DNA of 36,061 nt from a virus (taxonomy: Duplodnaviria > Heunggongvirae > Uroviricota > Caudoviricetes). The stretch spans positions 1-36,061 of IMG/VR virus record IMGVR_UViG_2778261222_000004; one strand, written 5' to 3'. Made by a program: the position numbers and the translations under genes. Below are positions 1 to 36,061 of the stretch, one piece after another. The notes beneath the pieces are model-generated. The model saw only the letters and a program-made list of their open reading frames with translations. It had not been told where the DNA came from and did no database searches. How positions within the stretch are numbered: position 1 is the first letter of the stretch; each line of letters begins with the position of its first letter.

Positions 1-1023
1 TTATGTGGATGAAATGTGGATGCCTCCTTTTAACGGATTAAGTGAAATTGCATCCTGGAGGAAATCAGGAGCGAGGTGCGCATAGGTCATAGTTTGCTGG
101 ATCGTGGCGTGCCCCATAATTCGCTGGAGCGTAAGTATATTTCCTCCATTAATCATAAAGTGAGCAGCAAAGGTATGGCGTAGAACATGTACAGCCTGTC
201 CTTTTGGTAGGTCTGGCTTAACACTGCGAAGCACCTTGCGATATTCCTCATAATTGACGTCAAACAAAAGGCCGGATTTCTTTGTTTTGATCTCACTAAC
301 AACTTCATCAGAGACAGGAATAATTCGAACTTTTCCGTTTTTAGTTTTGTTAAACGTCACGCGATTATTGATGATGTGTTCCGCGCGCAGATTTTTCGCT
401 TCTCCCCATCTCGCCCCAGTACTGAGACAAAGTAGCGTAATCCGCCGGGCATCACCGCTTACTGCATCCAGTAATTTGGCGATTTCTTCCATGGTGAGAT
501 ACGTCATTTCGGGTGATTTTCGTTTCAAAGAGGGGAGGGCGCGGAGCGGATTTTCTCCGTGAAATTCCCCGGCATTTGCCAGGAGTGTAAACATTCCTCC
601 GAGATCCGACTCATCACGCCGAACAGTAGACTCTTTTACTCCCAAGGATAAACGGGAGCTTCGATAAGCGGCCATGAAACGAGCATTAATCTGGCTAACC
701 CTTGGATCATTCATTTCTTTGATGATTTTTTTCAACCTGGTTAGAACGCCGTTAGCATATGGCTTATTGCGTCCACCCAATTCCCACCATAACGGAAGCA
801 GATCTGAGAGATGACGTTGCTCTGTTGGCTTTTCAAGCCATTCCTTATCGTGCATGTGGCTGAGAACATAACGCTCAAAGGCCACTGCATCTGCCTTTTT
901 CTTAAAAATCCGCTGAATCCGACGTCCACTTCGGCCACGCGGTCTAACATCCACTTTATACCGTCCACCATCGAGCGCTTTAATTGCCATTGGCAAGCCC
1001 TCCGGTGAAACGAGGAAAGACAT
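1..1023 (-). CDS. int: tyrosine site-specific recombinase (phage integrase, P2 Int-like)
   Basis: 340-aa ORF with ATG at 1023..1021; C-terminal catalytic region (HVLRHTFAAHFMINGG ... GHATIQQTMTYAHL) typical of tyrosine recombinases; lies immediately downstream of the C-type repressor as in P2; its stop codon is nt 1-3 of the window. Confidence 0.9.
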   Translation of the reverse strand: MSFLVSPEGLPMAIKALDGGRYKVDVRPRGRSGRRIQRIFKKKADAVAFERYVLSHMHDKEWLEKPTEQRHLSDLLPLWWELGGRNKPYANGVLTRLKKIIKEMNDPRVSQINARFMAAYRSSRLSLGVKESTVRRDESDLGGMFTLLANAGEFHGENPLRALPSLKRKSPEMTYLTMEEIAKLLDAVSGDARRITLLCLSTGARWGEAKNLRAEHIINNRVTFNKTKNGKVRIIPVSDEVVSEIKTKKSGLLFDVNYEEYRKVLRSVKPDLPKGQAVHVLRHTFAAHFMINGGNILTLQRIMGHATIQQTMTYAHLAPDFLQDAISLNPLKGGIHISST

Positions 1024-1056
1024 TTCCAGTTTGTAAAACGTAAGAATAATAAAGGG

Positions 1057-1359
1057 TTAGCCAATTTTCCTTTCGGATGGGGGTAAGTCCGTTGGCTCTT
1101 GCCCATAGTGTGCGAGAGCCGGAGCTATCTGCCCGGATTCAGGCGCAATTTTCCCAGTCATAAACCACAACGCATATTTCTCAAATCTGGGGTTGTTTAG
1201 TATTTGCTCAATTACTTCAGCATTAGGGATAGTTTTACCGCTTTCATATCTCCACAGAGCATCACGGTTTAAACCAAGCATTTTTGCTGTATCCGGGAGG
1301 CTAGTAAGTCTCTCGCTTTCACGCATGATTTTTATGCGCTCTCCAATAGTCATACGCAT
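1057..1359 (-). CDS. immunity repressor, P2 C-like (HTH)
   Basis: Small HTH protein divergent from the cox-like gene; C-terminal block FMTGKIAPESGQIAPALAHYGQ recalls the P2 C repressor; the ORF track starts at a TTG (1374) but the ATG at 1359 is preceded by GGAGA at about 8 nt, so that start is preferred. Confidence 0.8.
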   Translation of the reverse strand: MRMTIGERIKIMRESERLTSLPDTAKMLGLNRDALWRYESGKTIPNAEVIEQILNNPRFEKYALWFMTGKIAPESGQIAPALAHYGQEPTDLPPSERKIG

Positions 1360-1454
1360 GTTGCAATTCTCCAACGTCTGTATTAATGTTTATACAAATG
1401 AGTTTGATTTGGGGCATCCGTCGCAAGAAATACCCCAAACAGGGAGATTATCAC
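1360..1454. promoter_or_regulatory. divergent immunity-switch promoter/operator region between repressor and cox-like gene
   Basis: About 95 bp AT-rich spacer between two divergently oriented regulator genes; position equivalent to Pc/Pe of P2; individual operators not resolved. Confidence 0.4.
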
Positions 1455-1781
1455 ATGAATGAAGAACTATTGAGGGCATTGTTTAAGATCCCAGACCCCA
1501 TCACCGTCGATGAGTTTTCCCGCCGTACAGGTAAGACCGAATCAGCCGTAAGAAAGTTGGTAGAGCGTCGACTCATCCCTCTAACTACTGAGCGCGAGGT
1601 TTTAGGCGAGGAAGGGAGTTCGCGCCGTCTTCTCATCCTTTGGAATGAGTGGCTCGAAATGGTCTATGACGCAACGAAACAGCTTCCTCCTGAGCGTAAA
1701 GATTGGCGCAATCACTGGCTTAAGAAAGCCAAGAAGCTGGCGGAAGATTTGGGATTAGGCTTTCTTAATTTTGCTGCATGA
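1455..1781 (+). CDS. cox: Cox/Apl-like excisionase and transcriptional regulator
   Basis: ATG 1455 preceded by AGGGAG (1441-1446); HTH-like segment ITVDEFSRRTGKTESAVRKLVERRLIP; divergent from repressor as P2 cox; the ORF-track start at 1386 is probably an upstream extension. Confidence 0.7.
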   Translation: MNEELLRALFKIPDPITVDEFSRRTGKTESAVRKLVERRLIPLTTEREVLGEEGSSRRLLILWNEWLEMVYDATKQLPPERKDWRNHWLKKAKKLAEDLGLGFLNFAA

Positions 1782-1799
1782 GATGCAGGGAGTTTTGAT

Positions 1800-2141
1800 A
1801 TGAAACAGCAACGTAATTCACGCTTTCGTAATGGTGCTGAACGCCACGCTAACCGTTTCGCTACCAGTGCATCACGCAGCAACATCCGCTACAGCCTGAG
1901 TGATACACACGCAACGCCGGATGGCTACCCAGTAAAACAAATCGGCGAGCACGCTTGGCTGATTGAGAAAGCTGGAATCGTGATCCACAAATGCCCACGC
2001 AATCCGTTTACCGGAAACCGCATTTTTGCATTGAGCTGTGGCGACAATCAGTTTGGGCAGGATTTCACATTATACGAAGCACTTCGCACGGTTGATCGTC
2101 TGCTTCGCGGGCAAAGTTTTATTAAACAGGCTGATTTATAA
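1800..2141 (+). CDS. hypothetical early protein
   Basis: 113-aa ORF with RBS AGGGAG upstream, first gene after cox in the early operon; no recognisable motif. Confidence 0.5.
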   Translation: MKQQRNSRFRNGAERHANRFATSASRSNIRYSLSDTHATPDGYPVKQIGEHAWLIEKAGIVIHKCPRNPFTGNRIFALSCGDNQFGQDFTLYEALRTVDRLLRGQSFIKQADL

Positions 2142-2151
2142 CGGGTGCTTT

Positions 2152-2439
2152 ATGACCAAAGACCATGCACAAGGTGTATTTATCCGCTTTATTGATTTTC
2201 GCGGTGAACTGTTATTACGTGCATCCGCTATTGACGGAGTGACTCCGGCGGGTAAAAACGGAGCCGACGAAGCCACTTACGTTTATCTGAACGGCACGCG
2301 ACTGCTTGTGGAACTTCCGTACCAGACCGTACGAGAAATCATTAGCGAAGCTGAAAAGGCACGCCAAGTTAATGGCGATGAACCCTATATCGAAATTATT
2401 TGTATGGATTCAGAAGCTGAAATACAGAAAGCAGATTAA
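2152..2439 (+). CDS. hypothetical early protein
   Basis: In-frame ATG at 2152 just after the stop of the previous gene; the ORF-track start 2038 overlaps the upstream gene and is less likely. Confidence 0.45.
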   Translation: MTKDHAQGVFIRFIDFRGELLLRASAIDGVTPAGKNGADEATYVYLNGTRLLVELPYQTVREIISEAEKARQVNGDEPYIEIICMDSEAEIQKAD

Positions 2440-2447
2440 AGGGCGTT

Positions 2448-2693
2448 GTGATGGGCAAAGAATATAAAACTCTCATTAACAAAGCACTTGAGCGTTTTTA
2501 TTTTCGCTTAAGTGCATCAGGCGCTCATGCTGAACGTGCAGCCCGTGACTCATTGACCAGGGCAATCCGGAGTTTGTATGACGTCGCTTTTTACGCTGAT
2601 GATCTGGATGCACTTAACGAACTTTCCGAGCTGATCTGTGCCGCAGAATGCGGGGAACATATTGAACCGTATAAGCTGGGGAATATCGCATGA
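2448..2693 (+). CDS. hypothetical early protein
   Basis: 81-aa ORF, tightly packed in the early operon. Confidence 0.5.
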   Translation: MMGKEYKTLINKALERFYFRLSASGAHAERAARDSLTRAIRSLYDVAFYADDLDALNELSELICAAECGEHIEPYKLGNIA

Positions 2694-2803
2694 GTATATT
2701 TATCTCATGGCTTGTTCTGATTATTTCGGTGGCCTGCGCCATTGGAATTATGCGAATTATTCATTCAGTAAAAAAGATTGAACGTTTTTTCACTGGTGAA
2801 TAA
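2690..2803 (+). CDS. small hydrophobic peptide (37 aa, single predicted TM helix)
   Basis: ATG at 2690 overlaps the stop of the upstream gene (ATGA); translation MSIFISWLVLIISVACAIGIMRIIHSVKKIERFFTGE; not in the ORF track because it is under 60 aa. Confidence 0.3.
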   Translation: MSIFISWLVLIISVACAIGIMRIIHSVKKIERFFTGE

Positions 2804-2896
2804 CGATACAAATAAAACATCAAATTAAATAAGAAAACGTGAAAACCATCCGTATTAACGGAGGTATTCGCATACGCAAATAACGGAGATACAAAA

Positions 2897-3307
2897 ATGC
2901 ACGCAAAAGAAGAAGGTATCATCAGAGCACTGAAAGAAATTTCAAAGACAGAAAACGAAGTAGCGAAAAAAGCCATAGCAAATAATCATATGGACGTCGC
3001 AACCCACACACTGATAGTCGCAAGAGTCACGGCAGAAGCAGCCGAAATTATCGCAAAACAGGATGCTGAACTGGCGGTTCTCAGAACACAACCAGTCACC
3101 GGACTGGATTTGTCTAACACCGGACGCCTTATTTACACAATTGGCTCGGAGCTACAGCGATACACCATTATCGCCGGGTTACAGGATAAATACCTGATCA
3201 CTCCTCACCCCATAAGGGAATCAGAAATTCTGACAAATCTCCGCCTGATAGAGCGCTCTCAAGTCGCATTCATTGATGACGCACAGTGCACCGTATTTAA
3301 CGCATAG
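2897..3307 (+). CDS. hypothetical protein (possible moron with its own promoter)
   Basis: 136-aa ORF preceded by about 90 bp of AT-rich non-coding DNA and RBS GGAG; no recognisable motif. Confidence 0.5.
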   Translation: MHAKEEGIIRALKEISKTENEVAKKAIANNHMDVATHTLIVARVTAEAAEIIAKQDAELAVLRTQPVTGLDLSNTGRLIYTIGSELQRYTIIAGLQDKYLITPHPIRESEILTNLRLIERSQVAFIDDAQCTVFNA

Positions 3308-3330
3308 AGTTACTGGACAAAGGGGGCGCA

Positions 3331-3534
3331 ATGGCAATTAAGCATTTTCCCGTCGTTCGCTTTACCTCCAGAGGGCGCGAATACGAGGTCGACGAACGCC
3401 TGATTACCACTATCGACAAACATCGTTCGGAAAAGGATGCACACCACATCTACCTCACTGACGGCACTTACTTCTGCGCCACTAATGTGGCGCGGGTAAA
3501 CCTTATCCGACAGGTACAGGAGCCACGCAGATGA
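3331..3534 (+). CDS. hypothetical protein
   Basis: 67-aa ORF with RBS AAGGGGG; stop overlaps the next start (ATGA), suggesting translational coupling. Confidence 0.5.
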   Translation: MAIKHFPVVRFTSRGREYEVDERLITTIDKHRSEKDAHHIYLTDGTYFCATNVARVNLIRQVQEPRR

Positions 3535-3797
3535 CCATTCTGGACTACATCGCTACTCATCCGGGGTGTAGCGGCGGAGAGATCGCCGCAGCACTGAATA
3601 CTCCAACCACAGCCATTAATGCTGAGTTACGCCAACTTTGGCGCGGCGGCTTAGTCATCAGAACAAACCGCAGCACAGGTGGTCGCGCTCGCAAAACTGG
3701 AGGCCAGGCTTCTTACCACGTAAACCCGATGCCGTTCGGGTGTAGCAATCCACTTACTCACATGTTTAACCAGCTACTGAAGGAAGCCAGAACATGA
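3531..3797 (+). CDS. putative small winged-helix DNA-binding protein
   Basis: 88 aa; segment GCSGGEIAAALNTPTTAINAELRQLWRGGLVIR resembles a helix-turn-helix followed by a wing; assignment by eye only. Confidence 0.4.
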   Translation: MTILDYIATHPGCSGGEIAAALNTPTTAINAELRQLWRGGLVIRTNRSTGGRARKTGGQASYHVNPMPFGCSNPLTHMFNQLLKEART

Positions 3798-4093
3798 GCA
3801 CCATCAACCACCAGAAGCTACGCGAACTGGCATTTGCCCTGCAACGAATGGCAACACCTCAAAAATTACTGGCATTTCGCGCAATGCTCTCGCCGTCTGC
3901 TGTGCTGGCACTGCTGGATGAGCTGGAGCACGCCAGAACCATGTCTCCAGCCATTCGCCTGACGCTCCATCATGAAATCGCTGATTTCTGCGCACCACTG
4001 GGTTCGCCTGGTGAACCAGAAACGCCGGAAACAATGCAACGAGAGCTACTGCAACGCATCGACAAGGTTTTTGATTTTTTCCTTAACCAGTGA
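3794..4093 (+). CDS. Ead/Ea22-like early protein (tentative)
   Basis: 99 aa; motif SPSAVLALLDELEHAR resembles the conserved block of Ead/Ea22-like phage early proteins; start overlaps upstream stop. Confidence 0.4.
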   Translation: MSTINHQKLRELAFALQRMATPQKLLAFRAMLSPSAVLALLDELEHARTMSPAIRLTLHHEIADFCAPLGSPGEPETPETMQRELLQRIDKVFDFFLNQ

Positions 4094-4104
4094 AGGACCG
4101 CGAT

Positions 4105-4317
4105 ATGAACAAAAAGACCTGGTTTCGCGCATACATGTGGGCGCTGGTATGCGTCCTCGTTTCTCTCATTCTGTATGTGGGGCTACTTCCCAGAATGATT
4201 TCATCAGACAGCTCCTTCCTGGTATTGCTGGGCATTTTTGTCGCCTTGCTGTACCCGGCGGGCGTTGTTCGCTTTTTCAGTAACTACATCAAAGCAATTA
4301 TGGAAACCAAACAATGA
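4105..4317 (+). CDS. small membrane protein (two predicted TM helices)
   Basis: ATG 4105 with GAAGGA about 7 nt upstream; two hydrophobic stretches (WALVCVLVSLILYVGLL and FLVLLGIFVALLYPAGVV); stop overlaps the start of the SPFH gene. Confidence 0.5.
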   Translation: MNKKTWFRAYMWALVCVLVSLILYVGLLPRMISSDSSFLVLLGIFVALLYPAGVVRFFSNYIKAIMETKQ

Positions 4318-5138
4318 AAAAACTATTACCACTCATCCCTCTCCTGATGACCACACTTCTGGTTGGCTGTGACCGCGTGGAGCCGGGCAATGTAGGCATC
4401 AAAGTCAACAAACTGGGCGACGATAAAGGCGTCGGTGAAGTAGTTGGCGTTGGCCGCTACTGGACAGGCTGGAATACAGAGGTTTACATCTTCCCGACTT
4501 TCAAACAAATGAAGACTTACGATGAGCCGTTCAACTTCCAGATGAGTGACGGCACAACCATCGGCTATCACATCGGCGTGGCCTACAAAGTTGATCCATC
4601 CAAAGTTACCACTGTGTTTCAGACCTACCGCAAAGGCGTGGATGACATTACCGACACTGACCTGCGCCAGAAGATCGCCGATGCACTCAACCGACTGGCC
4701 AGCAAAATGACCACCGATAAGTTTATCGACGGTGGCAAGTCTGAACTGCTGGATTCAGCACTTAAAGACATTCAGTCAGAAATGACACCTATCGGCATTC
4801 AGGTCATGAGCCTCTCTTATGTCGGTAAACCGGAATATCCGCCAACCGTTATCGACAGCATTAACGCCAAAGTCACGGCAAACCAGAAAACCCTGCAACG
4901 CGAACAGGAAGTCAAGCAACGCGAAGCAGAAGCCAACATGTTGCGCGCAGAAGCTGCCGGACAGGCTGATGCCATTCGCACAAAAGCCCAGGCTGAAGCC
5001 GACGCCATTCGTTTACGCGGTGAAGCTCTGCGCCAGAATCCCGGCGTTATGGAGCTGGAAGCAATCAACAAATGGAACGGCACGCTGCCGCAATACATGA
5101 CCAGCAACACCGCTGTTCCGTTTGTTCCGGTGAAGTAA
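4314..5138 (+). CDS. SPFH/band-7 (stomatin/flotillin/HflC-like) lipoprotein
   Basis: N-terminal signal peptide with lipobox LLVGC; SPFH-like core; C-terminal Ala/Glu-rich coiled coil (QREAEANMLRAEAAGQADAIRTKAQAEADAIR) and WNGTLP terminal block typical of band-7 proteins. Confidence 0.75.
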   Translation: MKKLLPLIPLLMTTLLVGCDRVEPGNVGIKVNKLGDDKGVGEVVGVGRYWTGWNTEVYIFPTFKQMKTYDEPFNFQMSDGTTIGYHIGVAYKVDPSKVTTVFQTYRKGVDDITDTDLRQKIADALNRLASKMTTDKFIDGGKSELLDSALKDIQSEMTPIGIQVMSLSYVGKPEYPPTVIDSINAKVTANQKTLQREQEVKQREAEANMLRAEAAGQADAIRTKAQAEADAIRLRGEALRQNPGVMELEAINKWNGTLPQYMTSNTAVPFVPVK

Positions 5139-5144
5139 TTAAAC

Positions 5145-5190
5145 CCGGCCAGTGAAAATCGCTGGCCGGAGCAGTATCAGGATTTTTTTT
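5145..5190 (+). terminator. putative intrinsic terminator after the SPFH operon
   Basis: Perfect 8-bp stem CCGGCCAG / CTGGCCGG (5145-5152 / 5162-5169) with a 9-nt loop, followed at a distance by a T8 run (5183-5190). Confidence 0.4.
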
Positions 5191-5370
5191 AGTATGCCGT
5201 TCTCACAAAAAAACCGCTTGCCATGCCGCAATCAGTCAGGTTACATTTCCGCTGCACCTCATAAAACGGGTGCCGGGTTTCGCAGCCTGCTGACAACCAA
5301 AGCGCACAACCGCGCCAGCGGTTTTTTTGTGCGTACTGTATTGCCACGTCTTTTTCGCACACGAATTATG

Positions 5371-5444
5371 GCGGGGCGTACGGGGCCGACTTCGGTCGGG
5401 CCGGGTTCTTTGGTTGCCGGTACTGCGAACCCCGTACGTCTCGC
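5371..5444 (+). other. structured element: 15-bp long-range helix enclosing a UUCG-tetraloop hairpin (candidate ncRNA or RNA regulatory structure)
   Basis: 5371-5385 (GCGGGGCGTACGGGG) pairs with 5430-5444 (CCCCGTACGTCTCGC): 13 Watson-Crick plus 2 G-U pairs; inner hairpin CCGAC-TTCG-GTCGG at 5386-5399; sits in a 370-bp stretch with no convincing ORF. Confidence 0.35.
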
Positions 5445-5507
5445 CACCCACAGTTTCGCAGCTCTGGATGGTGAGTTTTCAAAACTTACAACCAAAGAGG
5501 CCACACC

Positions 5508-5738
5508 ATGGCAAACCGCAAACAGCACCGCGCTATCGCGGAGCGTCGTCACATCCAGACTGAAATCAACCGCAGACTTTCCCGCGCATTCCGCGTCGCT
5601 AAAATCATGCACATCAATATGCTGCATGAGCGTAGCTGCGAACTTTCAAACCTCTACTCATCCGCTGTTTTCAGTTATCTGGCGGATGATCTGCGCGAGC
5701 TTCAGCAGCTCATCCAGCAGCAAAACAAACTCCATTAA
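5508..5738 (+). CDS. hypothetical basic protein
   Basis: 76-aa ORF with RBS AGAGG upstream of ATG 5508; Arg/Lys-rich N-terminus; function unknown. Confidence 0.45.
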   Translation: MANRKQHRAIAERRHIQTEINRRLSRAFRVAKIMHINMLHERSCELSNLYSSAVFSYLADDLRELQQLIQQQNKLH

Positions 5739-5810
5739 TTCCTGTTCCGGGCCTTTCCTGCACCTTGCGGCGGGAGGCCTTCGCACATCTGTAACAAGAG
5801 GATTGCCGCA

Positions 5811-6176
5811 ATGATTCTCGCCAACGACTTTCTTGAATACCTGCTCAACACAGAGCGTGATCTTGCCGCTCGCGTGCGTGATCGTTATGACATGTACCTG
5901 AAATCCCTGCCTGTACCGCAGCTCGCTGACGGAAAGATTGTTATTGATGGTCGCTACATGATTGACAGCCACGAGGGAAATTACAGGCTTTCCCGCATTG
6001 AAGGTGGCACCCCGTCCGTTATTGGCATTTACCAGCGCCCATCCTCTGCAATCGTCGATGTGATTGCCGACAGCATCCGCATCACACATCGCCATGCCGA
6101 CACAGAAGACACCGTGCTGGAAATTCAGCGGCTGGCTACAGTCTGCCGCGACACCCTGAATGGCATGACGAAGTAA
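5811..6176 (+). CDS. hypothetical protein immediately upstream of the replication gene
   Basis: 121-aa ORF with RBS AAGAGGA; same strand and tight spacing with the A-type gene. Confidence 0.5.
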   Translation: MILANDFLEYLLNTERDLAARVRDRYDMYLKSLPVPQLADGKIVIDGRYMIDSHEGNYRLSRIEGGTPSVIGIYQRPSSAIVDVIADSIRITHRHADTEDTVLEIQRLATVCRDTLNGMTK

Positions 6177-6182
6177 ATCACT

Positions 6183-9005
6183 ATGACGGCAGAGTACATC
6201 AGGGACTGGCAACAACCGCGCCACGCAGTGGGGCGTGAAGGAACGGGGATCCCCGCTCCTGAATCCGCGCTTTCCTCCTGGCTGGATGCCTACCGGGTAG
6301 AGAACGAGCGCCGCCAGGAAATGGCTGATGCGGCGTTCTCCGCCACGCCGCTGGGCAACCTGATTAATAAAAGCCTGGACGCACAGGAAAAACAGGACAA
6401 AACCATCACACTGGCAGGAGACGCCAGAAAACAGGCACGCGGCGCAGTGGATGAAGCCATGACCTCGCTGCGCCTGCTGCCGTCCTATCTGCGCGATCCG
6501 CTTATTCGCCACCTCTCCTTCCTGCGCAAAAAACAGGAAGCCGATCGCCGGAAAGGCAAAAAGAGCTGGCAGGCTGAACGCTACGCGCGCGGAACCCTGC
6601 GCAAAATATTCGTACGTCTGGACCGCACCGACAGCCGTTGGCTGACACCGGGTTATCGGTCCCTTGCCGGACGTGAACGCCTGGACGATTTGCTTTACCT
6701 GCCGCAACTCAACAAACACCAGATACAGACGCTGGCCACCATGACGGCGGCGATGTTCAGCAGCACCTTCGAAAAACTCTGCGATGGTTTTGGCGCGACT
6801 GATGGCGAGCTGACCATGGATGTAACGCTGAAGGCGTATCAGATGCTGGCCCGCATGGCGTTACACTTGCACGCCATGCCTCCGCATTATGACGCACTGA
6901 CAACAGACAAAGACCGGAGGAACGAACCGGACACAGAACTGCTGCCGGGCGCAATCCTTCGCCTGACCTGTGCGGAATGGTGGAAACGCAAACTGTGGCT
7001 GTTACGTTGCGAGTGGAGAGAAGAACAACTCCGCGCCGCCTGTCTGGTTTCCAGAAAAACATCGCCCTATCTGAGCCAGGACGCGTTAAGCGAGTTTCGC
7101 GCACAGCGCGAGAAAACACGCGATTTCCTGAAAAGTTTCATGCTGGAAAACGAAGACGGGTTCACGATTGATCTCGAGACAGTGTATTACGCGGGAGTAA
7201 GTAACCCGGTTCACCGTAAGGCAGAAATGATGGCCACCATGAAGGGGCTGGAACTTCTGGCCGAAGCCCGTGGCGACAGAGCGGTGTTTCTGACCATCAC
7301 CTGCCCGTCAAAATACCACGCCACAACAGAGAACGGTCATCCGAATCCCAAATGGAATGGGGCCACCATGCGCGACTCCAGCGATTACCTGGTTAACACG
7401 TTTTTTGCGGCGGTCCGCAAGAAACTGAACCGCGACGGCCTGCGCTGGTATGGTATCCGCACGGTGGAGCCTCACCATGACGGCACCGTGCACTGGCATA
7501 TGATGGTCTTTGCTCATCCGGAAGAAATCGACACCATTGTGTCTCACACCCGCGATATTGCCATTCAGGAAGATCGTCACGAGCTGGGTGATGATATTAC
7601 CCCACGCTTTAAGGCGGAGTACGTCGACGGCTCAAAAGGCACGCCAACCAGCTACATCGCCACCTACATCGGAAAGAACCTGGACAGCCGCGCCGTAGAT
7701 GGCATCGACCCGAAAACGGGCAAGCCACGCGTTGACCACGAAACCGGAAAATCAATGGCCGAGAGCGTGGAACGCGCCATCGGCTGGGCGCGCCTTCACC
7801 GTGTCCGCCAGTTCCAGTTCTTTGGTATCCCCTCCCGTCAGGTGTGGCGTGAACTCCGCCGCCTTGCCAGCCAGATGGCACGCAACCCGGAAGGCCCGCA
7901 ACGGCTGAAGGATGACGCAATGGATGCGGTACTCGCTGCCGCTGATGCCGGATGTTTTGCCACCTACATAGAGAAACAGGGCGGCGTACTTGTTCCACGC
8001 AAAGACTACCTGATTCGCACAGCCTACGACCTCGCAGATGAGCTGAACGATTACGGCGAACAGAGCGTACAGATTTACGGGATCTGGTCACCACTCATCG
8101 GGGAATCCTCCCGTGTGTGCACGCATCCGGATAACTGGATGCTGGTAAGACGTAAACCGGAAGCGGAAGACAGCACCCGCGAAAATGGTTTTGACCTTCA
8201 GGGCGGCCCTGCCGCCCCTTGGACTCGTGGCAATAACTGTCCCCGTGTACAGGAAACAGGCAACAACGGGACAGAACAGCCGGAAGAACGGCCAGCACCG
8301 TGGCCGCAGATTCCTGACGGCGTTGAAGTGAATGAATGGATGCGCTCACTGAAACGGCACGAACGCCGGGCGCTGATGCGTTCGCTTCGTGACAAACAGG
8401 CAAAAAACAGCAGTGATGAAATGCAAAGCTGGACACAGAGCCGCAAACAGCAGCGGCCTTTGCCTGATAACCACGAATTACTCGCTAAAGAATGGCGGGA
8501 GTCTGCTGAATCTCTCGGCCTGCATATTGGTGAACAGCAGATGCAGCACCTGTTACGGGGCGGCAGTCTGTACGTTGACGGCAGCATCATTGCACCGCAG
8601 GGATTTGAAATTGTACGCAAACCGGATACCCGCCCGGACAGCCGAATCACGCAGCTCTGGCAGCGCCTGAGCCGTAATCACGGCGTAAGCAGCACGGAGA
8701 TCCGCCATAACCCGGCCGCCAGCTATCTGGAACAGCTGGGGGCATCAGACCCCGAAGCCGCCGCACGTCTGGCATCCACACTTCAGCAGGACCAGAACAC
8801 CATGAAAACCCCCGTTACCGTGCTTTCTGACATGCTGCGCGCCATCCGCGACGCAGAGCATGCACAGAGAATCAGTGAAACCACTGAACGCGCCCGCCGC
8901 AAAGCAGACCTGCTGCGGGGTGGCCTGACAAGTGGAAACAAAAAACAGACAGAAACGGGATTCACAAATCCCGTAAATGAGCAAAAAACGCGCCGCGATA
9001 TATGA
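6183..9005 (+). CDS. rolling-circle replication initiator endonuclease (P2 A / phiX174 gpA family, HUH superfamily)
   Basis: 940-aa ORF; HUH-type motif HWHMMVF and paired catalytic tyrosines YIATYIGK; position after the early operon as in P2; long hydrophilic C-terminal extension. Confidence 0.9.
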   Translation: MTAEYIRDWQQPRHAVGREGTGIPAPESALSSWLDAYRVENERRQEMADAAFSATPLGNLINKSLDAQEKQDKTITLAGDARKQARGAVDEAMTSLRLLPSYLRDPLIRHLSFLRKKQEADRRKGKKSWQAERYARGTLRKIFVRLDRTDSRWLTPGYRSLAGRERLDDLLYLPQLNKHQIQTLATMTAAMFSSTFEKLCDGFGATDGELTMDVTLKAYQMLARMALHLHAMPPHYDALTTDKDRRNEPDTELLPGAILRLTCAEWWKRKLWLLRCEWREEQLRAACLVSRKTSPYLSQDALSEFRAQREKTRDFLKSFMLENEDGFTIDLETVYYAGVSNPVHRKAEMMATMKGLELLAEARGDRAVFLTITCPSKYHATTENGHPNPKWNGATMRDSSDYLVNTFFAAVRKKLNRDGLRWYGIRTVEPHHDGTVHWHMMVFAHPEEIDTIVSHTRDIAIQEDRHELGDDITPRFKAEYVDGSKGTPTSYIATYIGKNLDSRAVDGIDPKTGKPRVDHETGKSMAESVERAIGWARLHRVRQFQFFGIPSRQVWRELRRLASQMARNPEGPQRLKDDAMDAVLAAADAGCFATYIEKQGGVLVPRKDYLIRTAYDLADELNDYGEQSVQIYGIWSPLIGESSRVCTHPDNWMLVRRKPEAEDSTRENGFDLQGGPAAPWTRGNNCPRVQETGNNGTEQPEERPAPWPQIPDGVEVNEWMRSLKRHERRALMRSLRDKQAKNSSDEMQSWTQSRKQQRPLPDNHELLAKEWRESAESLGLHIGEQQMQHLLRGGSLYVDGSIIAPQGFEIVRKPDTRPDSRITQLWQRLSRNHGVSSTEIRHNPAASYLEQLGASDPEAAARLASTLQQDQNTMKTPVTVLSDMLRAIRDAEHAQRISETTERARRKADLLRGGLTSGNKKQTETGFTNPVNEQKTRRDI
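8953..8977. repeat. 25-bp palindromic element, copy 1 (AAACGGGATTCACAAATCCCGTAAA)
   Basis: Inverted repeat ACGGGATT / AATCCCGT inside the last codons of the A-type ORF; matches copy 2 at 23 of 25 positions. Confidence 0.6.
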
Positions 9006-9025
9006 AGCGCGCATAAAACAGGCAA

Positions 9026-9050
9026 AAACGGGATTTAAAAATCCCGTAAA
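9026..9050. repeat. 25-bp palindromic element, copy 2 (AAACGGGATTTAAAAATCCCGTAAA)
   Basis: Perfect 9-bp inverted repeat ACGGGATTT / AAATCCCGT with 2-bp spacer, 73 bp downstream of copy 1 and about 30 bp upstream of parM. Confidence 0.6.
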
Positions 9051-9081
9051 CGATTAATTAATCAACATAAGGAAAAGCGAC

Positions 9082-10041
9082 ATGAAAATTTGTATCGACG
9101 ACGGCTCCACCAACATCAAGCTGGCATGGACTGAGAACGGCGAACGCCGCAACGCCATCAGCCCGAACAGCTTCAAGTCGGAATGGTCTGCGCCGTTCGG
9201 TGGCACGCAGCCCGCGAACTACATGCTTGATGGTGTGCGCTATGGTTTTGATCCGGTCAGCGATCGCTTTGTCCAGACGACCGACACGCAATACCAGTAC
9301 AGCGATGTGAATGTCATTGCCATTCATCACGCGCTGGTCAAATCAGGCATCACGCCACAGGAGGTGGATGTGGTTGTCACCCTGCCACTGAGCGAGTATT
9401 TCGACACAAACGCACAGCCGGACATGGCCAACATCAACCGCAAAAAAGCGAACGTTATGCGCCCGGTGGAGTACCAGAACGGCGAAGCATTCACTATCCG
9501 TAACGTGCGGGTTATGCCTGAATCCATTCCGGCTGGCTTTAAAGCACTGGCCGACATGAGTCCGTTTGAATCCCTGCTGATTGTGGATTTGGGCGGAACC
9601 ACGCTGGATGTGGCAAAGGTTCAGGGGCAGCTGGCAGGTATCAGCCAGGTGTTTTGCGATCCACACGTAGGCGTTTCTCTGATGGCCGATGCCGTGCTGT
9701 CGGTGATGGCCACCAACGGTATGCGCACCAGTCACCACATCGCCAATACCATTATCGAACATCGCCACGATGAAGCCTGGCTGCGCCAGCACATCCACAA
9801 TGACGCGCATTACGCCAGCCTGATGGCAGTTATTCGTGAAAAGGAAGAAACACTGAAACAACGCGTGATCCGCGCGCTGGCGGGTTTTTCGGGTTACGGG
9901 CGGGTGATGGTTGTAGGTGGAGGAGCGGAGATTGTGGCACCCGCTATCTGCGAAGCCTGCGGAGTTAATGCGACTTTCATCGCGGACGGGGTGCCACAGT
10001 TTGCTCTGGTTAATGGGCTGTACGCAATGGACCAGGAGTAA
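9082..10041 (+). CDS. parM: actin-like plasmid segregation ATPase ParM (StbA family)
   Basis: 319 aa; N-terminal phosphate-1 block ICIDDGSTNIKLAW, DVNVIAIHHAL, VMPESIPAG, LLIVDLGGTTLD and MVVGGGAE blocks align by eye along the whole length with plasmid R1 ParM. Confidence 0.9.
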   Translation: MKICIDDGSTNIKLAWTENGERRNAISPNSFKSEWSAPFGGTQPANYMLDGVRYGFDPVSDRFVQTTDTQYQYSDVNVIAIHHALVKSGITPQEVDVVVTLPLSEYFDTNAQPDMANINRKKANVMRPVEYQNGEAFTIRNVRVMPESIPAGFKALADMSPFESLLIVDLGGTTLDVAKVQGQLAGISQVFCDPHVGVSLMADAVLSVMATNGMRTSHHIANTIIEHRHDEAWLRQHIHNDAHYASLMAVIREKEETLKQRVIRALAGFSGYGRVMVVGGGAEIVAPAICEACGVNATFIADGVPQFALVNGLYAMDQE

Positions 10042-10045
10042 ATCA

Positions 10046-10360
10046 ATGACGACACCAACCAGACGGATAAGTTTCTATCTGAAGCCCACCGTCGTCAAGA
10101 GCGAACGGGAGGCGTGCAGTTACCTCGACAGCCTGCCAGCCTCCGAACGCAGCCGCGCACAACGCGCGGCTTTTCTGGCCGGACTGGCTCTTATAAAACG
10201 CACCCCCGCGTTGGCGTATTCGCTGGCAGAATGGTCAGAAGACGAAATACGGATGCCACCGCTACCAGTACAGCCTGAAAAACCGGCGCAACCAGCAGCA
10301 GACAGCGCCCCCCATATGCAGCAGGTGAAAAAGAATATTCAGGCGTTTTTCCCGAAGTGA
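10046..10360 (+). CDS. parR: ParR-like centromere-binding adaptor (ribbon-helix-helix)
   Basis: ATG 10046 with AGGAG about 7 nt upstream, 4 nt after the parM stop; N-terminal block ISFYLKPTVVKSEREACSYLDSLPASERSRAQRAAFLAGLAL resembles R1 ParR; the ORF-track start 9917 lies inside parM and is rejected. Confidence 0.7.
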   Translation: MTTPTRRISFYLKPTVVKSEREACSYLDSLPASERSRAQRAAFLAGLALIKRTPALAYSLAEWSEDEIRMPPLPVQPEKPAQPAADSAPHMQQVKKNIQAFFPK

Positions 10361-10374
10361 AAACAGGAGTAACT

Positions 10375-10662
10375 ATGTCCACCATTACCAAAGAATGGTT
10401 ACAACGTAAAATCACAGAGTTTAAATCGTGGCGCGAAGACATCCCGTTCGGTCTTGATGAAGACGATCACAATATGTTAACCGCACTGGAAATCGCACTT
10501 GCATCACTGGAAGCAGAGCCAGTGGCATGGATACACGCAAATAATCCTATTGGAATACCGGCGATAACAAGAAGTAAAGATGTTGCAGACAGCTGGCGCT
10601 CTAAGGGATGGAATGTATTGCCTCTTTATTCACTGACCCGCTCCATCAATTTATGCCATTAA
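10375..10662 (+). CDS. hypothetical protein (cargo gene)
   Basis: 95 aa from ATG 10375 with AGGAG 5 nt upstream; lower GC than the flanking core genes by eye; no recognisable motif. Confidence 0.45.
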   Translation: MSTITKEWLQRKITEFKSWREDIPFGLDEDDHNMLTALEIALASLEAEPVAWIHANNPIGIPAITRSKDVADSWRSKGWNVLPLYSLTRSINLCH

Positions 10663-10673
10663 TGGAAGTAATC

Positions 10674-11033
10674 ATGATGAAAGATAATTCCGGAAGCCAG
10701 CGTGCATCAGTTGCAGTTATGGTGATGATTAAATTTGTGAAACAGTACACCGGAAAGCCAATCTCGCTCCGGCAATTAAGCAAAGAAACCGTTTCACTGT
10801 CATATCTGGAGCAAATATTCAGATATTTACGGGAAAGTAGCCTGGTAAAAGCCACACGCGGCCCGGGTGGTGGATATATCCCAACAAAAGAAAATTACAG
10901 TGTTGGTGATATTGTCCGGGCAATGAAATGTTCCGGATTATATACACAGCACGTTATTCTGGCTGCACTGGATAATATTTCTTTAACCAGCCTGCAGGAA
11001 GACACAAATTATCAGTTGTCTGCCATTGAATAA
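10674..11033 (+). CDS. Rrf2/IscR-family-like winged-helix regulator (short form)
   Basis: Signature blocks ISLRQLSKETVSLSYLEQIF and RGPGGGY typical of Rrf2-family regulators; ATG 10674 preceded by GGAAG; the ORF-track start 10608 overlaps the upstream gene. Confidence 0.6.
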   Translation: MMKDNSGSQRASVAVMVMIKFVKQYTGKPISLRQLSKETVSLSYLEQIFRYLRESSLVKATRGPGGGYIPTKENYSVGDIVRAMKCSGLYTQHVILAALDNISLTSLQEDTNYQLSAIE

Positions 11034-35112: not shown

Positions 35113-35325
35113 ATGACGCAAAATGTACGATGCAAAAATTGCAACAAACTACTTGCCCGCGCCTCATTTCACTACATTGAAATAAAATGTCCGCGCTGCA
35201 AAACACTTAACCAGATAACGAGAGCCATTGAGCACCCCACACACATGAGGAGTTATGACCGTGGGGATCGCAATCCAGCACCAACCAGCACATACACCGG
35301 AACACACCAAGGTTTATCAGACTGA
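35113..35325 (+). CDS. com: Com-like zinc-finger translational activator (Mu Com family)
   Basis: N-terminal RCKNCNKLL ... IEIKCPRCK matches the Mu Com zinc finger almost exactly; ATG 35113 with AAGAGG upstream; 3' end overlaps the methyltransferase start as com overlaps mom in Mu. Confidence 0.8.
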   Translation: MTQNVRCKNCNKLLARASFHYIEIKCPRCKTLNQITRAIEHPTHMRSYDRGDRNPAPTSTYTGTHQGLSD

Positions 35326-36061
35326 CAATGCCACGCTCTGTCGTGGGAATGCGCTGGAAATATTGCCGCTGATTGAGCCAGAAAGCATTGATGCCTTAAT
35401 CACTGACCCACCTTACAGTTCGGGTGCGACACACAAGGCCGGACGCACCAACCAGGGCAGCCATGCAAAATATCTGAACGGCGAGAACCTTCACCGCTTT
35501 GATGGGTTCGCGGGTGAAAACATGGACGCCCGTTCGTGGGCTTACTGGACACAATTATGGATGGCACAGGCACACCGCGCAGTCAGGCCGGGCGGTTATG
35601 CCCTGGTATTTACTGACTGGCGACAACTACCAGCTTTAACCGATGCGTTTCAGGCCAGTGGCTTTACATGGCGCGGCATCATTGCGTGGAACAAGGGGAG
35701 GGGGTCACGAACACCCCATACCGGGTATTTCCGGCATCAGTGCGAATACATTGTCTGGGGCAGCAAAGGCCATTTAGATAAATCGCCTTCGGGGCCGTTC
35801 GACGGCTGCATGACGTTCCCGGTTATCCCGTCAAAGAAAATGCACCCGACCGGAAAACCAGAAGAACTAATGGCAGAGCTGGTCAGAACTGCGAATAGTG
35901 GCGGAACAGTCCTTGATCCCTTTATGGGGTCAGGAACAACGGGTGTGGCTGCACTGAAAGCAGGGCGAAAATTTATTGGTATAGAAACCAGTGATCATTA
36001 TTTTGAGGTAGCAGCGCAGCGGCTTCGGGGGACTATTACCACAACCATTTCGACTACATAA
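35255..36061 (+). CDS. orphan DNA methyltransferase (beta-class amino-MTase, N6-adenine or N4-cytosine)
   Basis: DPPY motif (DPPYSSG) near the N-terminus and FxGxG (FMGSGTTG) near the C-terminus, i.e. motif IV before motif I; no adjacent restriction gene in the window; the start could be ATG 35255 or GTG 35261. Confidence 0.85.
   Translation: MTVGIAIQHQPAHTPEHTKVYQTDNATLCRGNALEILPLIEPESIDALITDPPYSSGATHKAGRTNQGSHAKYLNGENLHRFDGFAGENMDARSWAYWTQLWMAQAHRAVRPGGYALVFTDWRQLPALTDAFQASGFTWRGIIAWNKGRGSRTPHTGYFRHQCEYIVWGSKGHLDKSPSGPFDGCMTFPVIPSKKMHPTGKPEELMAELVRTANSGGTVLDPFMGSGTTGVAALKAGRKFIGIETSDHYFEVAAQRLRGTITTTISTT

Follow-up and report, generated by a model that had tools for sequence, protein, structure and literature searches.

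Why would a temperate phage of the P2 type carry, among its early genes, an SPFH-domain lipoprotein coupled to a very small membrane protein? The question is raised by the virus record IMGVR_UViG_2778261222_000004 (Caudoviricetes), of which positions 1 to 36,061 were analyzed; this whole stretch of 36,061 nucleotides (nt) is referred to below as the window. A preliminary description of the window, made from its letters and translations, had pointed to five translationally coupled genes at 3331-5138, ending with a 70-amino-acid membrane protein and a 274-amino-acid lipoprotein. All five open reading frames (ORFs) are indeed present at these coordinates, tightly packed on the + strand, with ATGA start/stop overlaps at 3531, 3794, and 4314. 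Between the third and fourth genes there may be a GTGA overlap (4090), but a gap of 11 nt is more likely, leading to an ATG at 4105 that is preceded by a GAAGGA Shine-Dalgarno sequence. The genes, designated g1 to g5, are the following.

3331-3534, + strand: g1, 67 amino acids, a protein of unknown function (phrog_3459, E=1e-45), which is kept in sister phages that lack the cassette described below.
3531-3797, + strand: g2, 88 amino acids, a winged-helix (MarR-type) DNA-binding protein (Pfam MarR_2, E=1e-6; phrog_1687, E=7e-32).
3794-4093, + strand: g3, 99 amino acids, an Ead/Ea22-like protein (phrog_4144, E=2e-60; the match to Pfam Ead_Ea22 is weak and below the cut-off).
4105-4317, + strand: g4, 70 amino acids from the ATG (75 if translation starts at GTG 4090), a hairpin of two transmembrane (TM) helices (phrog_1130, "membrane protein," E=2e-21).
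4314-5138, + strand: g5, 274 amino acids, an SPFH lipoprotein (phrog_200, "lipoprotein," E=3.8e-111).

The accessory unit within this group is g4 plus g5 only, a self-contained two-gene cassette inside the early operon that extends from the cox-like gene to the replication gene gpA. Together with a trailing hairpin, the two genes occupy 4092-5203 (+ strand, approximately 1.1 kb), and among Xuanwuvirus phages this stretch is present or absent as a block. In blastn comparisons, the sister Xuanwuvirus phages PV468777, P88_4B11, and Shae_phiSM keep g1 to g3 and everything from the isrK/C4 region onward, and lack g4 and g5. Homology to these three phages ends at 4089-4097 and restarts at 5204, with only about 20 nt lying between the two points in PV468777. 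A discrete insertion between conserved genes, as is required of a moron, is therefore what the three sister phages reveal at 4092-5203. By the same comparison, g1 to g3 are core early-operon genes of P88-like phages that lie outside the accessory cassette, g3 being the last core gene ahead of the insertion. The view that the module is foreign to the canonical P2 early region is thus borne out for g4 and g5, which are missing at exactly this slot in the sister phages, and the five-gene module of the preliminary description is reduced to two genes. Its reference to P2 also has to be amended: the element is a P88-like E. coli prophage (Xuanwuvirus), distinct from P2 proper, and all five genes are already present and annotated in P88.

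The 3' end of the cassette is marked by the following structure.

5145-5169, + strand: a strong, GC-rich hairpin of 11 bp, located 7 nt past the g5 stop codon, with a T-run at 5182-5190.

The hairpin lies inside the indel, and the RNA fold of 5130-5215 (86 nt) has an energy of -26.7 kcal/mol (z = -3.9). It may act as a terminator or an RNA-stabilizing element; the T-run is displaced from the stem, and a scan for the strict terminator pattern did not call it. No promoter-like site was found upstream of g4 or of the copy in phage phiP27, a weak negative result as the scan relied on matches to a consensus.

Is g5 truly an SPFH protein, as the preliminary description had proposed? By both sequence threshold and fold, it belongs to the SPFH superfamily. 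Pfam Band_7 (PF01145) matches with 108.3 bits against a gathering threshold of 23.6 (E=5.8e-31), and residues 21 to 207 cover positions 2 to 176 of the 176 in the profile. An AlphaFold (AF2) model built with 62 homologues, with a mean predicted local distance difference test score of 82, displays an SPFH alpha/beta domain, a single helix, and a short C-terminal segment. In a Foldseek search against the PDB, full-length matches of probability 1.00 were obtained, the best of which was HflC (E=5.5e-14 over 267 columns), with erlin1/2, prohibitin, and HflK also among the top matches (E=1e-13 to 1e-14) and stomatin, flotillin, QmcA, and the shoulder of the major vault protein ranking lower. The profile search and the structure prediction that had been recommended for this protein therefore both gave positive results. 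The parts of g5 are an SPFH core (residues ~19 to 174), the Ala/Glu-rich segment, predicted as one helix of 65 residues (177 to 241; nucleotides 4842-5036) that would form the wall of an assembly, and a conserved C-terminal segment with W254, G256, and P259. The models are of monomers only; a cage would be consistent with their wall helix and the conserved strands at the C terminus. The label "serine protease" in the records of phiP27 and Stx (Shiga toxin) phages can be rejected, as only Band_7 and no protease domain was detected in the protein.

How the protein is anchored can be read from its N-terminus, which consists of MKKLLPLIPLLMTTLLVGC followed by DR and contains a lipobox, the signal peptide corresponding to residues 1 to 18. 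The arrangement agrees with the lipoprotein pattern (a charged n-region, a hydrophobic h-region, and [LVI][ASTVI][GAS]C), with MKK, then LLPLIPLLMTTL, then LVGC. The two codons of interest are listed here.

4368-4370, + strand: codon of the lipobox cysteine, Cys19.
4371-4373, + strand: codon of Asp20.

The lipobox LLVGC had been recognized at the outset, and its cysteine is invariant in an alignment of 38 diverse sequences whose homologues are 36 to 61% identical, and at least 90% conserved in another alignment. The residue at position +2 after the cysteine is Asp in 83 of 83 enterobacterial loci, including that of the window. In Escherichia coli, lipoproteins with Asp at +2 avoid Lol sorting and are thereby retained in the inner membrane. 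We therefore predict that g5 is anchored to the inner membrane with its SPFH domain in the periplasm, as in HflK/C, and not in the cytoplasm, as in QmcA or YqiK. A position in the outer leaflet of this same membrane is also favored because the g4 hairpin belongs to the inner membrane only, exposes just a few residues to the periplasm, and would need contact with g5 for the two to be partners. There is no TM helix in g5 itself and no second SPFH paralogue in the cassette.

The 70 residues of g4 are taken up almost wholly by two TM helices, with hydrophobic peaks in the hydropathy profile at residues ~10 to 28 and ~37 to 55. Conservation is good only in the short turn that connects the helices (about 4 to 8 residues). 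When 25 partners and fusion N-termini were aligned, the mean column identity was 28%, and the two residues that stood out, Ser33 (invariant) and Pro29 (at least 90% conserved), were both located in this turn. The sequence LLPRMISSDSS in g4 fits the family motif P-x-[LM]-[IV]-S-[AS]-x-[SD]. An NfeD protein, the kind of partner for which a profile check had been proposed, is not encoded here: g4 had no Pfam or NCBIfam match at E<=0.01 and is too short. The two-TM partner itself is real.

The association of the two genes was examined at 83 loci with close relatives of g5, namely, 80 IMG/VR contigs together with P88, phiP27, and Fraca. A two-TM ORF of 45 to 95 amino acids ends at the g5 start in 82 of these, with an ATGA overlap in 63, and at the single locus without a partner g5 starts only 210 nt from the end of the contig. 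The partners are of three types, and the mature SPFH protein beside them is nearly the same in each case. In phiP27, an ORF at 3753-3941 encodes a two-TM partner of 62 amino acids; it shares 4 nt with the start of L05 and does not appear in the annotation of that phage. Partners bearing the turn motif also occur beside more distant g5 homologues (39 to 49% identical) in the lytic N4-like phage Paxi, in the lytic Vequintavirinae phage GEC_vB_MG (one small ORF away), and in Alcaligenes prophages, as well as on a phage-like metagenomic contig and at a chromosomal locus of Luteibacter. SSU5 has a motif-bearing partner, too. The Luteibacter sp. pair (7735-8852 of the stretch examined), whose SPFH protein is 48% identical to g5 and whose genes overlap by 4 nt, has uvrB, a GspH-like gene, a PI-PLC, and PpnN as its neighbors, and no phage genes are recognizable within 8 kb, so that the module also exists outside phages. 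A profile of the 25 partners retrieved only 15 close relatives from a database of 5.8 billion sequences, the profile being too short, and the spread of g4 is accordingly read from gene neighborhoods.

In some lineages, the two proteins are joined. An exhaustive HMMER search for the SPFH family returned 2,869 cluster representatives, 217 of them at E<=1e-30. Among the top 150, 113 could be classified, and 19 of these (~17%) are in-frame fusions of the partner, a third hydrophobic helix, and the SPFH protein; the lipobox cysteine is kept in 17 of the 19. Two fusions from metagenomic contigs were followed at the DNA level and consist of one open frame. They are considered genuine because no usable internal start codon is present. 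An AlphaFold model of a fused protein, used for topology only, contains TM1 (residues 2 to 27), a four-residue turn, TM2 (32 to 53), and TM3 (59 to 72), followed by the SPFH body and two short C-terminal strands. A topology with the N terminus inside, two helices, and a third helix running from inside to outside and ending at the cysteine would be consistent with a periplasmic g5. As the lipobox is retained within a polytopic fused precursor, signal peptidase II might cleave such proteins internally. By these sequence comparisons, the pairing of g4 with g5 is real, and the fusions provide the strongest evidence for it.

The distribution of the family is broad. Homologues are present in 382 of 50,697 GenBank phage records and on at least 424 IMG/VR contigs, so that an SPFH protein of this kind is by no means restricted to non-phage contexts; the IMG/VR scan returned only relatives that are 92 to 99% identical, and its results are used for co-occurrence and not for diversity. 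Strictly lytic carriers are found in the Schitoviridae, Vequintavirinae, Ounavirinae, Bruynoghevirus, and the phiCbK-like Dolichocephalovirinae. Further carriers include crAss-like phages and Lak megaphages, and the family as a whole spans phages of Proteobacteria and Bacteroidota as well as bacterial chromosomes. The g5 gene occurs in 393 of 5,426 complete E. coli genomes (~7%), including those with Stx-converting phages, and the chromosome of E. coli strain 89-3156 harbors a stretch that is 100% identical to window positions 4105-5138 (g4 and g5).

Across P2-like, lambdoid, and plasmid-prophage backgrounds, the mature protein is 95 to 99% identical. From the cysteine codon onward, the mature region shares 91 to 92% nucleotide and 95% protein identity with phiP27 and ten Stx2 phages, while the protein identities to P88, the P1-like element RCS47, and SSU5 are 99, 97, and 81%, respectively. 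The signal peptides and partner genes of phiP27, the Stx2 phages, RCS47, and SSU5 could not be aligned to the window at the DNA level. Homology between window positions 4359-5105 and phiP27, the Stx2 phages, and SSU5 begins within a few bases of the cysteine codon and ends near the stop codon. Judging from these alignments, exchange or conservation affects the mature SPFH portion as one unit, whereas in the signal peptide and the partner divergence has gone past recognition in the DNA. The cassette also moves between phage types.

When is the cassette expressed? In every neighborhood that was inspected, the SPFH gene lies with early and DNA-metabolism genes (DNA polymerase, ligase, exonuclease/recombinase, thyX, rIIA) and never with lysis or structural genes. 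In lambdoid phages, the pair belongs to the early genes of the leftward arm, with the repressor region on one side and xis/int on the other. In the window, the cassette is inside the early lytic operon that extends from cox to gpA, downstream of the C repressor/cox switch, and no + strand promoter-like site was found between 2505 and 5217 by the consensus-match scan, again a weak negative. As the cassette is located inside a repressor-controlled early operon with no internal promoter-like site, it is expected to be silent in the lysogen. The earlier statement that it is expressed from the early/lysogenic side is therefore misleading, the genes being positioned past the switch on the lytic side. 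The presence of the family in lytic phages further implies that its general function serves lytic development and cannot depend on lysogeny. The role in the lysis-lysogeny decision that had been suggested does not hold as a general function, and a lysogeny-specific role in the lambda CII/FtsH axis is rejected as such because the family occurs in strictly lytic and in P2-type phages. Prophage-expressed immunity as a general role is rejected on account of the strictly lytic carriers.

How does the pair relate to systems that are already known? Sequence places g4 and g5 in the same family as P88 gp11/gp12, phiP27 L05, PHROG 1130 (moron category), and PHROG 200. In P88, the pair gp11/gp12 (a membrane protein and a "lipoprotein / putative SPFH domain protein") is the same pair in the same slot in the same genus, and nothing of substance differs. 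In phiP27 (L05) and the Stx2 phages, a mature protein 95% identical to g5 is accompanied by a divergent partner of the same family. The window copy is an ordinary member of a widespread phage accessory cassette that is already annotated in P88; the family is known and annotated. What is added here beyond the annotation are the exact limits of the cassette, the turn motif of the partner, the natural fusions, the uniform Asp at +2, and the occurrence in lytic phages. We found no experimental study of the function of a phage SPFH lipoprotein in the full-text literature, where phage papers only list SPFH domains, and no experiment that bears on FtsH or on superinfection exclusion came to light there. 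The text of Hinderhofer et al., which deals with 12 prokaryotic SPFH subfamilies, mentions neither phages nor lipoproteins, and g5 could not be assigned to a subfamily from that text.

The HflK/HflC-FtsH complex (PDB 7VHP, 7VHQ, and 7WI3) resembles what is predicted for g5: its SPFH scaffold sits on the inner membrane, faces the periplasm, and includes a long wall helix and a cap segment at the C terminus. It differs in its N-terminal TM helix anchor and in being a heteropair, whereas g5 is a single gene with a lipid anchor whose TM element would be provided in trans by the 70-residue hairpin. Scores against the NCBIfam equivalogs, which are the best sub-threshold matches of g5, are 26.4 bits for HflC (TIGR01932; cut-off, 134.4) and 22.6 bits for HflK (TIGR01933; cut-off, 159.4). 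With scores this far below the cut-offs, no TM anchor, and no paralogue, g5 is by sequence neither HflK nor HflC. The SPFH-NfeD operons (QmcA-YbbJ [PDB 8Z5G], YqiK-YqiJ, and FloT/YuaF of Bacillus subtilis) likewise combine an SPFH scaffold with a small membrane protein, the TM helices of which would lie inside the enclosed patch, and QmcA is the best sequence match of g5 in the PDB (E=7.6e-7), with HflK/C also among the best. In these operons, however, the partner has an NfeD/OB-fold domain and QmcA faces the cytoplasm, whereas g4 consists only of a hairpin and is encoded upstream of the SPFH gene, and g5 is predicted to be periplasmic. Lacking an NfeD domain in its partner, the pair is not an SPFH-NfeD operon.

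Taken together, these comparisons suggest the following mechanism. Once lipidated and cleaved at Cys19, g5 would stay in the inner membrane owing to the Asp at +2; its SPFH domain would be periplasmic, and the protein would oligomerize as an HflK/C-like ring or dome above a patch of the inner membrane. Hairpins of g4 within this patch would dock on the membrane-proximal face of the scaffold via the P-x-L-I-S-x-x-S/D turn, thereby supplying the TM element that a lipid-anchored scaffold lacks. Synthesis of the module would accompany that of the early genes, in lytic growth or shortly after infection, and a repressed prophage would not produce it. We regard a periplasmic-face scaffold of this type with g4 as its partner as likely. 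The weakest step is the last one, in which the cage would enclose or exclude a conserved client of the host inner membrane, most plausibly FtsH, and so retune membrane-protein turnover and membrane homeostasis. HflK/C normally cages the periplasmic domain of the FtsH protease. FtsH is favored because SPFH families of the same topology (HflK/C and the prohibitins) cage FtsH-type proteases, and because these families provide the best structural and sub-threshold sequence matches of g5. A conserved host target is favored because the mature protein is far more conserved than is usual in arms races between phages and because a chromosomal copy exists. By analogy with those families, action of the cage on a conserved host client with FtsH as the leading candidate is a tentative proposal that may well prove wrong. 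For the complete reading, with scaffold, partner, and FtsH-type client, our estimate of its probability is roughly 0.35, which makes it the best explanation at hand. Still more speculative is the generalization that diverse lytic and temperate phages possess a minimal HflK/C-type cage whose TM element comes from a separate 60- to 70-residue hairpin (or, in some lineages, from one precursor split by signal peptidase II), and which would act in general early host takeover from the periplasm by capturing or insulating a conserved inner-membrane machine such as FtsH.

Several observations weigh against this explanation. The HflK and HflC family models score far below their cut-offs, and, unlike HflK/C, g5 has neither a TM helix of its own nor a second SPFH paralogue. 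Its oligomerization, lipidation, and inner-membrane retention are predictions, and the residue that follows the Asp, at +3 and thus in the predicted retention context, is Arg. The link to FtsH is an analogy with SPFH families of the same topology. The partner is missing or replaced in phiEa21-4 (Ounavirinae), Pa222 (Bruynoghevirus), and Karma, and other genes are found upstream in phiCbK-like phages as well, so that the partner is not obligatory for the whole family. In a Pasteurella multocida lysogen, an HflK/C-like prophage protein was found in outer-membrane vesicles (PMC9872710); if this protein were homologous to g5, it would argue for expression from the prophage and for a different location.

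Three other explanations compete with the proposed FtsH-type cage. The main one holds that the cassette serves early superinfection exclusion or envelope defense, with g4 and g5 altering the periplasmic face of the inner membrane and thereby blocking DNA injection by later phages or stopping abortive infection systems that act on the membrane. Known exclusion proteins such as T4 Imm and Sp, TP-J34 Ltp, P22 SieA, and HK97 gp15 are small, accessory, and exposed at the membrane or in the periplasm, those of T4 being early and Ltp being lipid-anchored on the outer face of the cytoplasmic membrane; we take T4 Imm/Sp and the TP-J34 Ltp lipoprotein to be the functional analogues that this explanation would call for. 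The cassette is itself accessory and dispensable, being present or absent among close relatives and moving between unrelated phage types. It is located in an early operon, its products are predicted at the membrane and in the periplasm, lytic carriers could, like T4, gain from early exclusion, and in the Vi01-like phage PhiSH19 the SPFH gene adjoins a gene annotated as a superinfection exclusion protein. No relationship in sequence or fold was detected, however, between g4-g5 and these exclusion proteins, and PADLOC-DB v2 yielded no match at E<=0.01 for g4, g5, or the flanking proteins that were scanned. Our literature search found no SPFH protein tied to exclusion. Exclusion proteins typically diverge fast and are lineage specific, whereas the mature g5 protein is 95 to 99% conserved and belongs to an ancient and broad family with a non-phage chromosomal copy; in addition, the predicted silence in the lysogen would leave a prophage-bearing cell without protection. 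We consider exclusion unlikely, albeit worth keeping in view.

Rather unlikely in our judgment is a general role in stabilizing the membrane or timing lysis, in which the scaffold would have no specific client and would reinforce or compartmentalize the inner membrane, maintaining the proton-motive force and the envelope until lysis. Bacterial SPFH proteins and small membrane partners have been tied to protection from membrane stress, as in the cases of B. subtilis YqfA and the pspA-ydjGHI/SamGHI system (PMC2636767 and the abstract of a bioRxiv preprint). The occurrence of the family in very different lytic and temperate phages, its expression before the late genes, and its high conservation would fit a lipid or membrane target. 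Against this role, the bacterial examples are cytoplasm-facing and g5 is predicted to lie in the periplasm; the gene was never seen in a lysis cassette in the neighborhoods inspected; and the conserved, specific turn motif of the partner suggests a defined protein-protein interface rather than bulk effects on the membrane. Least likely, and in our opinion improbable, is a lysogenic-conversion factor directed at the animal host, that is, a lipoprotein made by the lysogen and released in vesicles as a TLR1/2 agonist or virulence factor. The P. multocida protein mentioned above (PM0222, 25 to 35 kDa), which was detected in vesicles, did activate TLR1/2, and its deletion attenuated virulence (PMC9872710); the presence of g5 in 393 of the 5,426 E. 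coli genomes, those with Stx-converting phages included, would also be in line with such a role. The homology of PM0222 to g5 could not be verified, however, and lipoproteins in general activate TLR2. Lytic phages of environmental bacteria such as Caulobacter, Erwinia, and Stenotrophomonas, for which effects on an animal host are irrelevant, contain abundant members of the family, and the consensus scan detected no promoter belonging to the gene itself.

What kind of phage harbors this copy? The first 10 kb of the window has the layout of a P2-type temperate phage, with the following features.

1-1023, - strand: integrase.
1057-1374, - strand: C-type helix-turn-helix repressor.
1386-1781: ORF of the cox-like gene, with the profile match from residue 24 onward.
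Between the cox-like gene and gpA, + strand: a run of small genes.
6183-9005: gpA replication nickase.

The nearest phage is Escherichia phage P88 (Peduoviridae, Xuanwuvirus), with 94% identity across window positions 1821-10198 and 89% nucleotide identity for the five genes at 3331-5138. Immediately after the cassette, Rfam matches above the gathering thresholds identify an isrK Hfq-binding RNA at 5254-5328 (+ strand, 65.9 bits) and a C4 antisense RNA at 5364-5451 (+ strand, 87.1 bits), and an ORF of 76 amino acids at 5508-5738, downstream of both, belongs to the Pfam "Derepression" family. This arrangement resembles the antirepressor control modules known from P1 (immI) or Gifsy-1 (isrK), here in a P2-type phage. 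The isrK/C4 module is kept in the sister phages without the SPFH cassette. There, the stretch that corresponds to window positions ~5197-5814 is annotated as an "ash family" pseudogene in PV468777 (4275-4535) and as a coding sequence for a 205-amino-acid "transcriptional regulator" in P88_4B11 (4254-4871), which overlaps the derepression ORF as well. Both labels probably represent mis-annotations of a non-coding RNA region.

Further downstream, a full-length ParM actin-like plasmid segregation protein is encoded at 9082-10041 (+ strand) after the replication gene (StbA_N, E=2e-82, plus ParM_N). The same gene is present in P88, and partition functions are unusual for an integrating P2-type phage. 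A regulator of the Rrf2 family is encoded at 10608-11033 (+ strand). The ORF at the right end of the window (35255-36061, + strand) encodes a DNA methylase of the N6/N4 type (Pfam N6_N4_Mtase, E=2.5e-33); the stretch around it has a lower GC content (0.475 at 34 to 35 kb), and the ORF is possibly cargo.

High-resolution views of SPFH cages, as formed by HflK/C, prohibitin, flotillin, erlin, stomatin, and QmcA, are recent, and the functions of these assemblies are still debated. At least eight unrelated phage lineages keep a compact and highly conserved SPFH version with a tiny partner. Its occurrence in lytic phages redirects functional hypotheses away from lysogeny. A phenotype of the cassette would show what a virus gains from building such a cage on the periplasmic side of the inner membrane, would provide a two-gene model, simple in genetic terms, of how SPFH proteins assemble and select clients, and might reveal a common function in early host takeover or exclusion that is present in about 7% of complete E. 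coli genomes, Stx-converting phages included.

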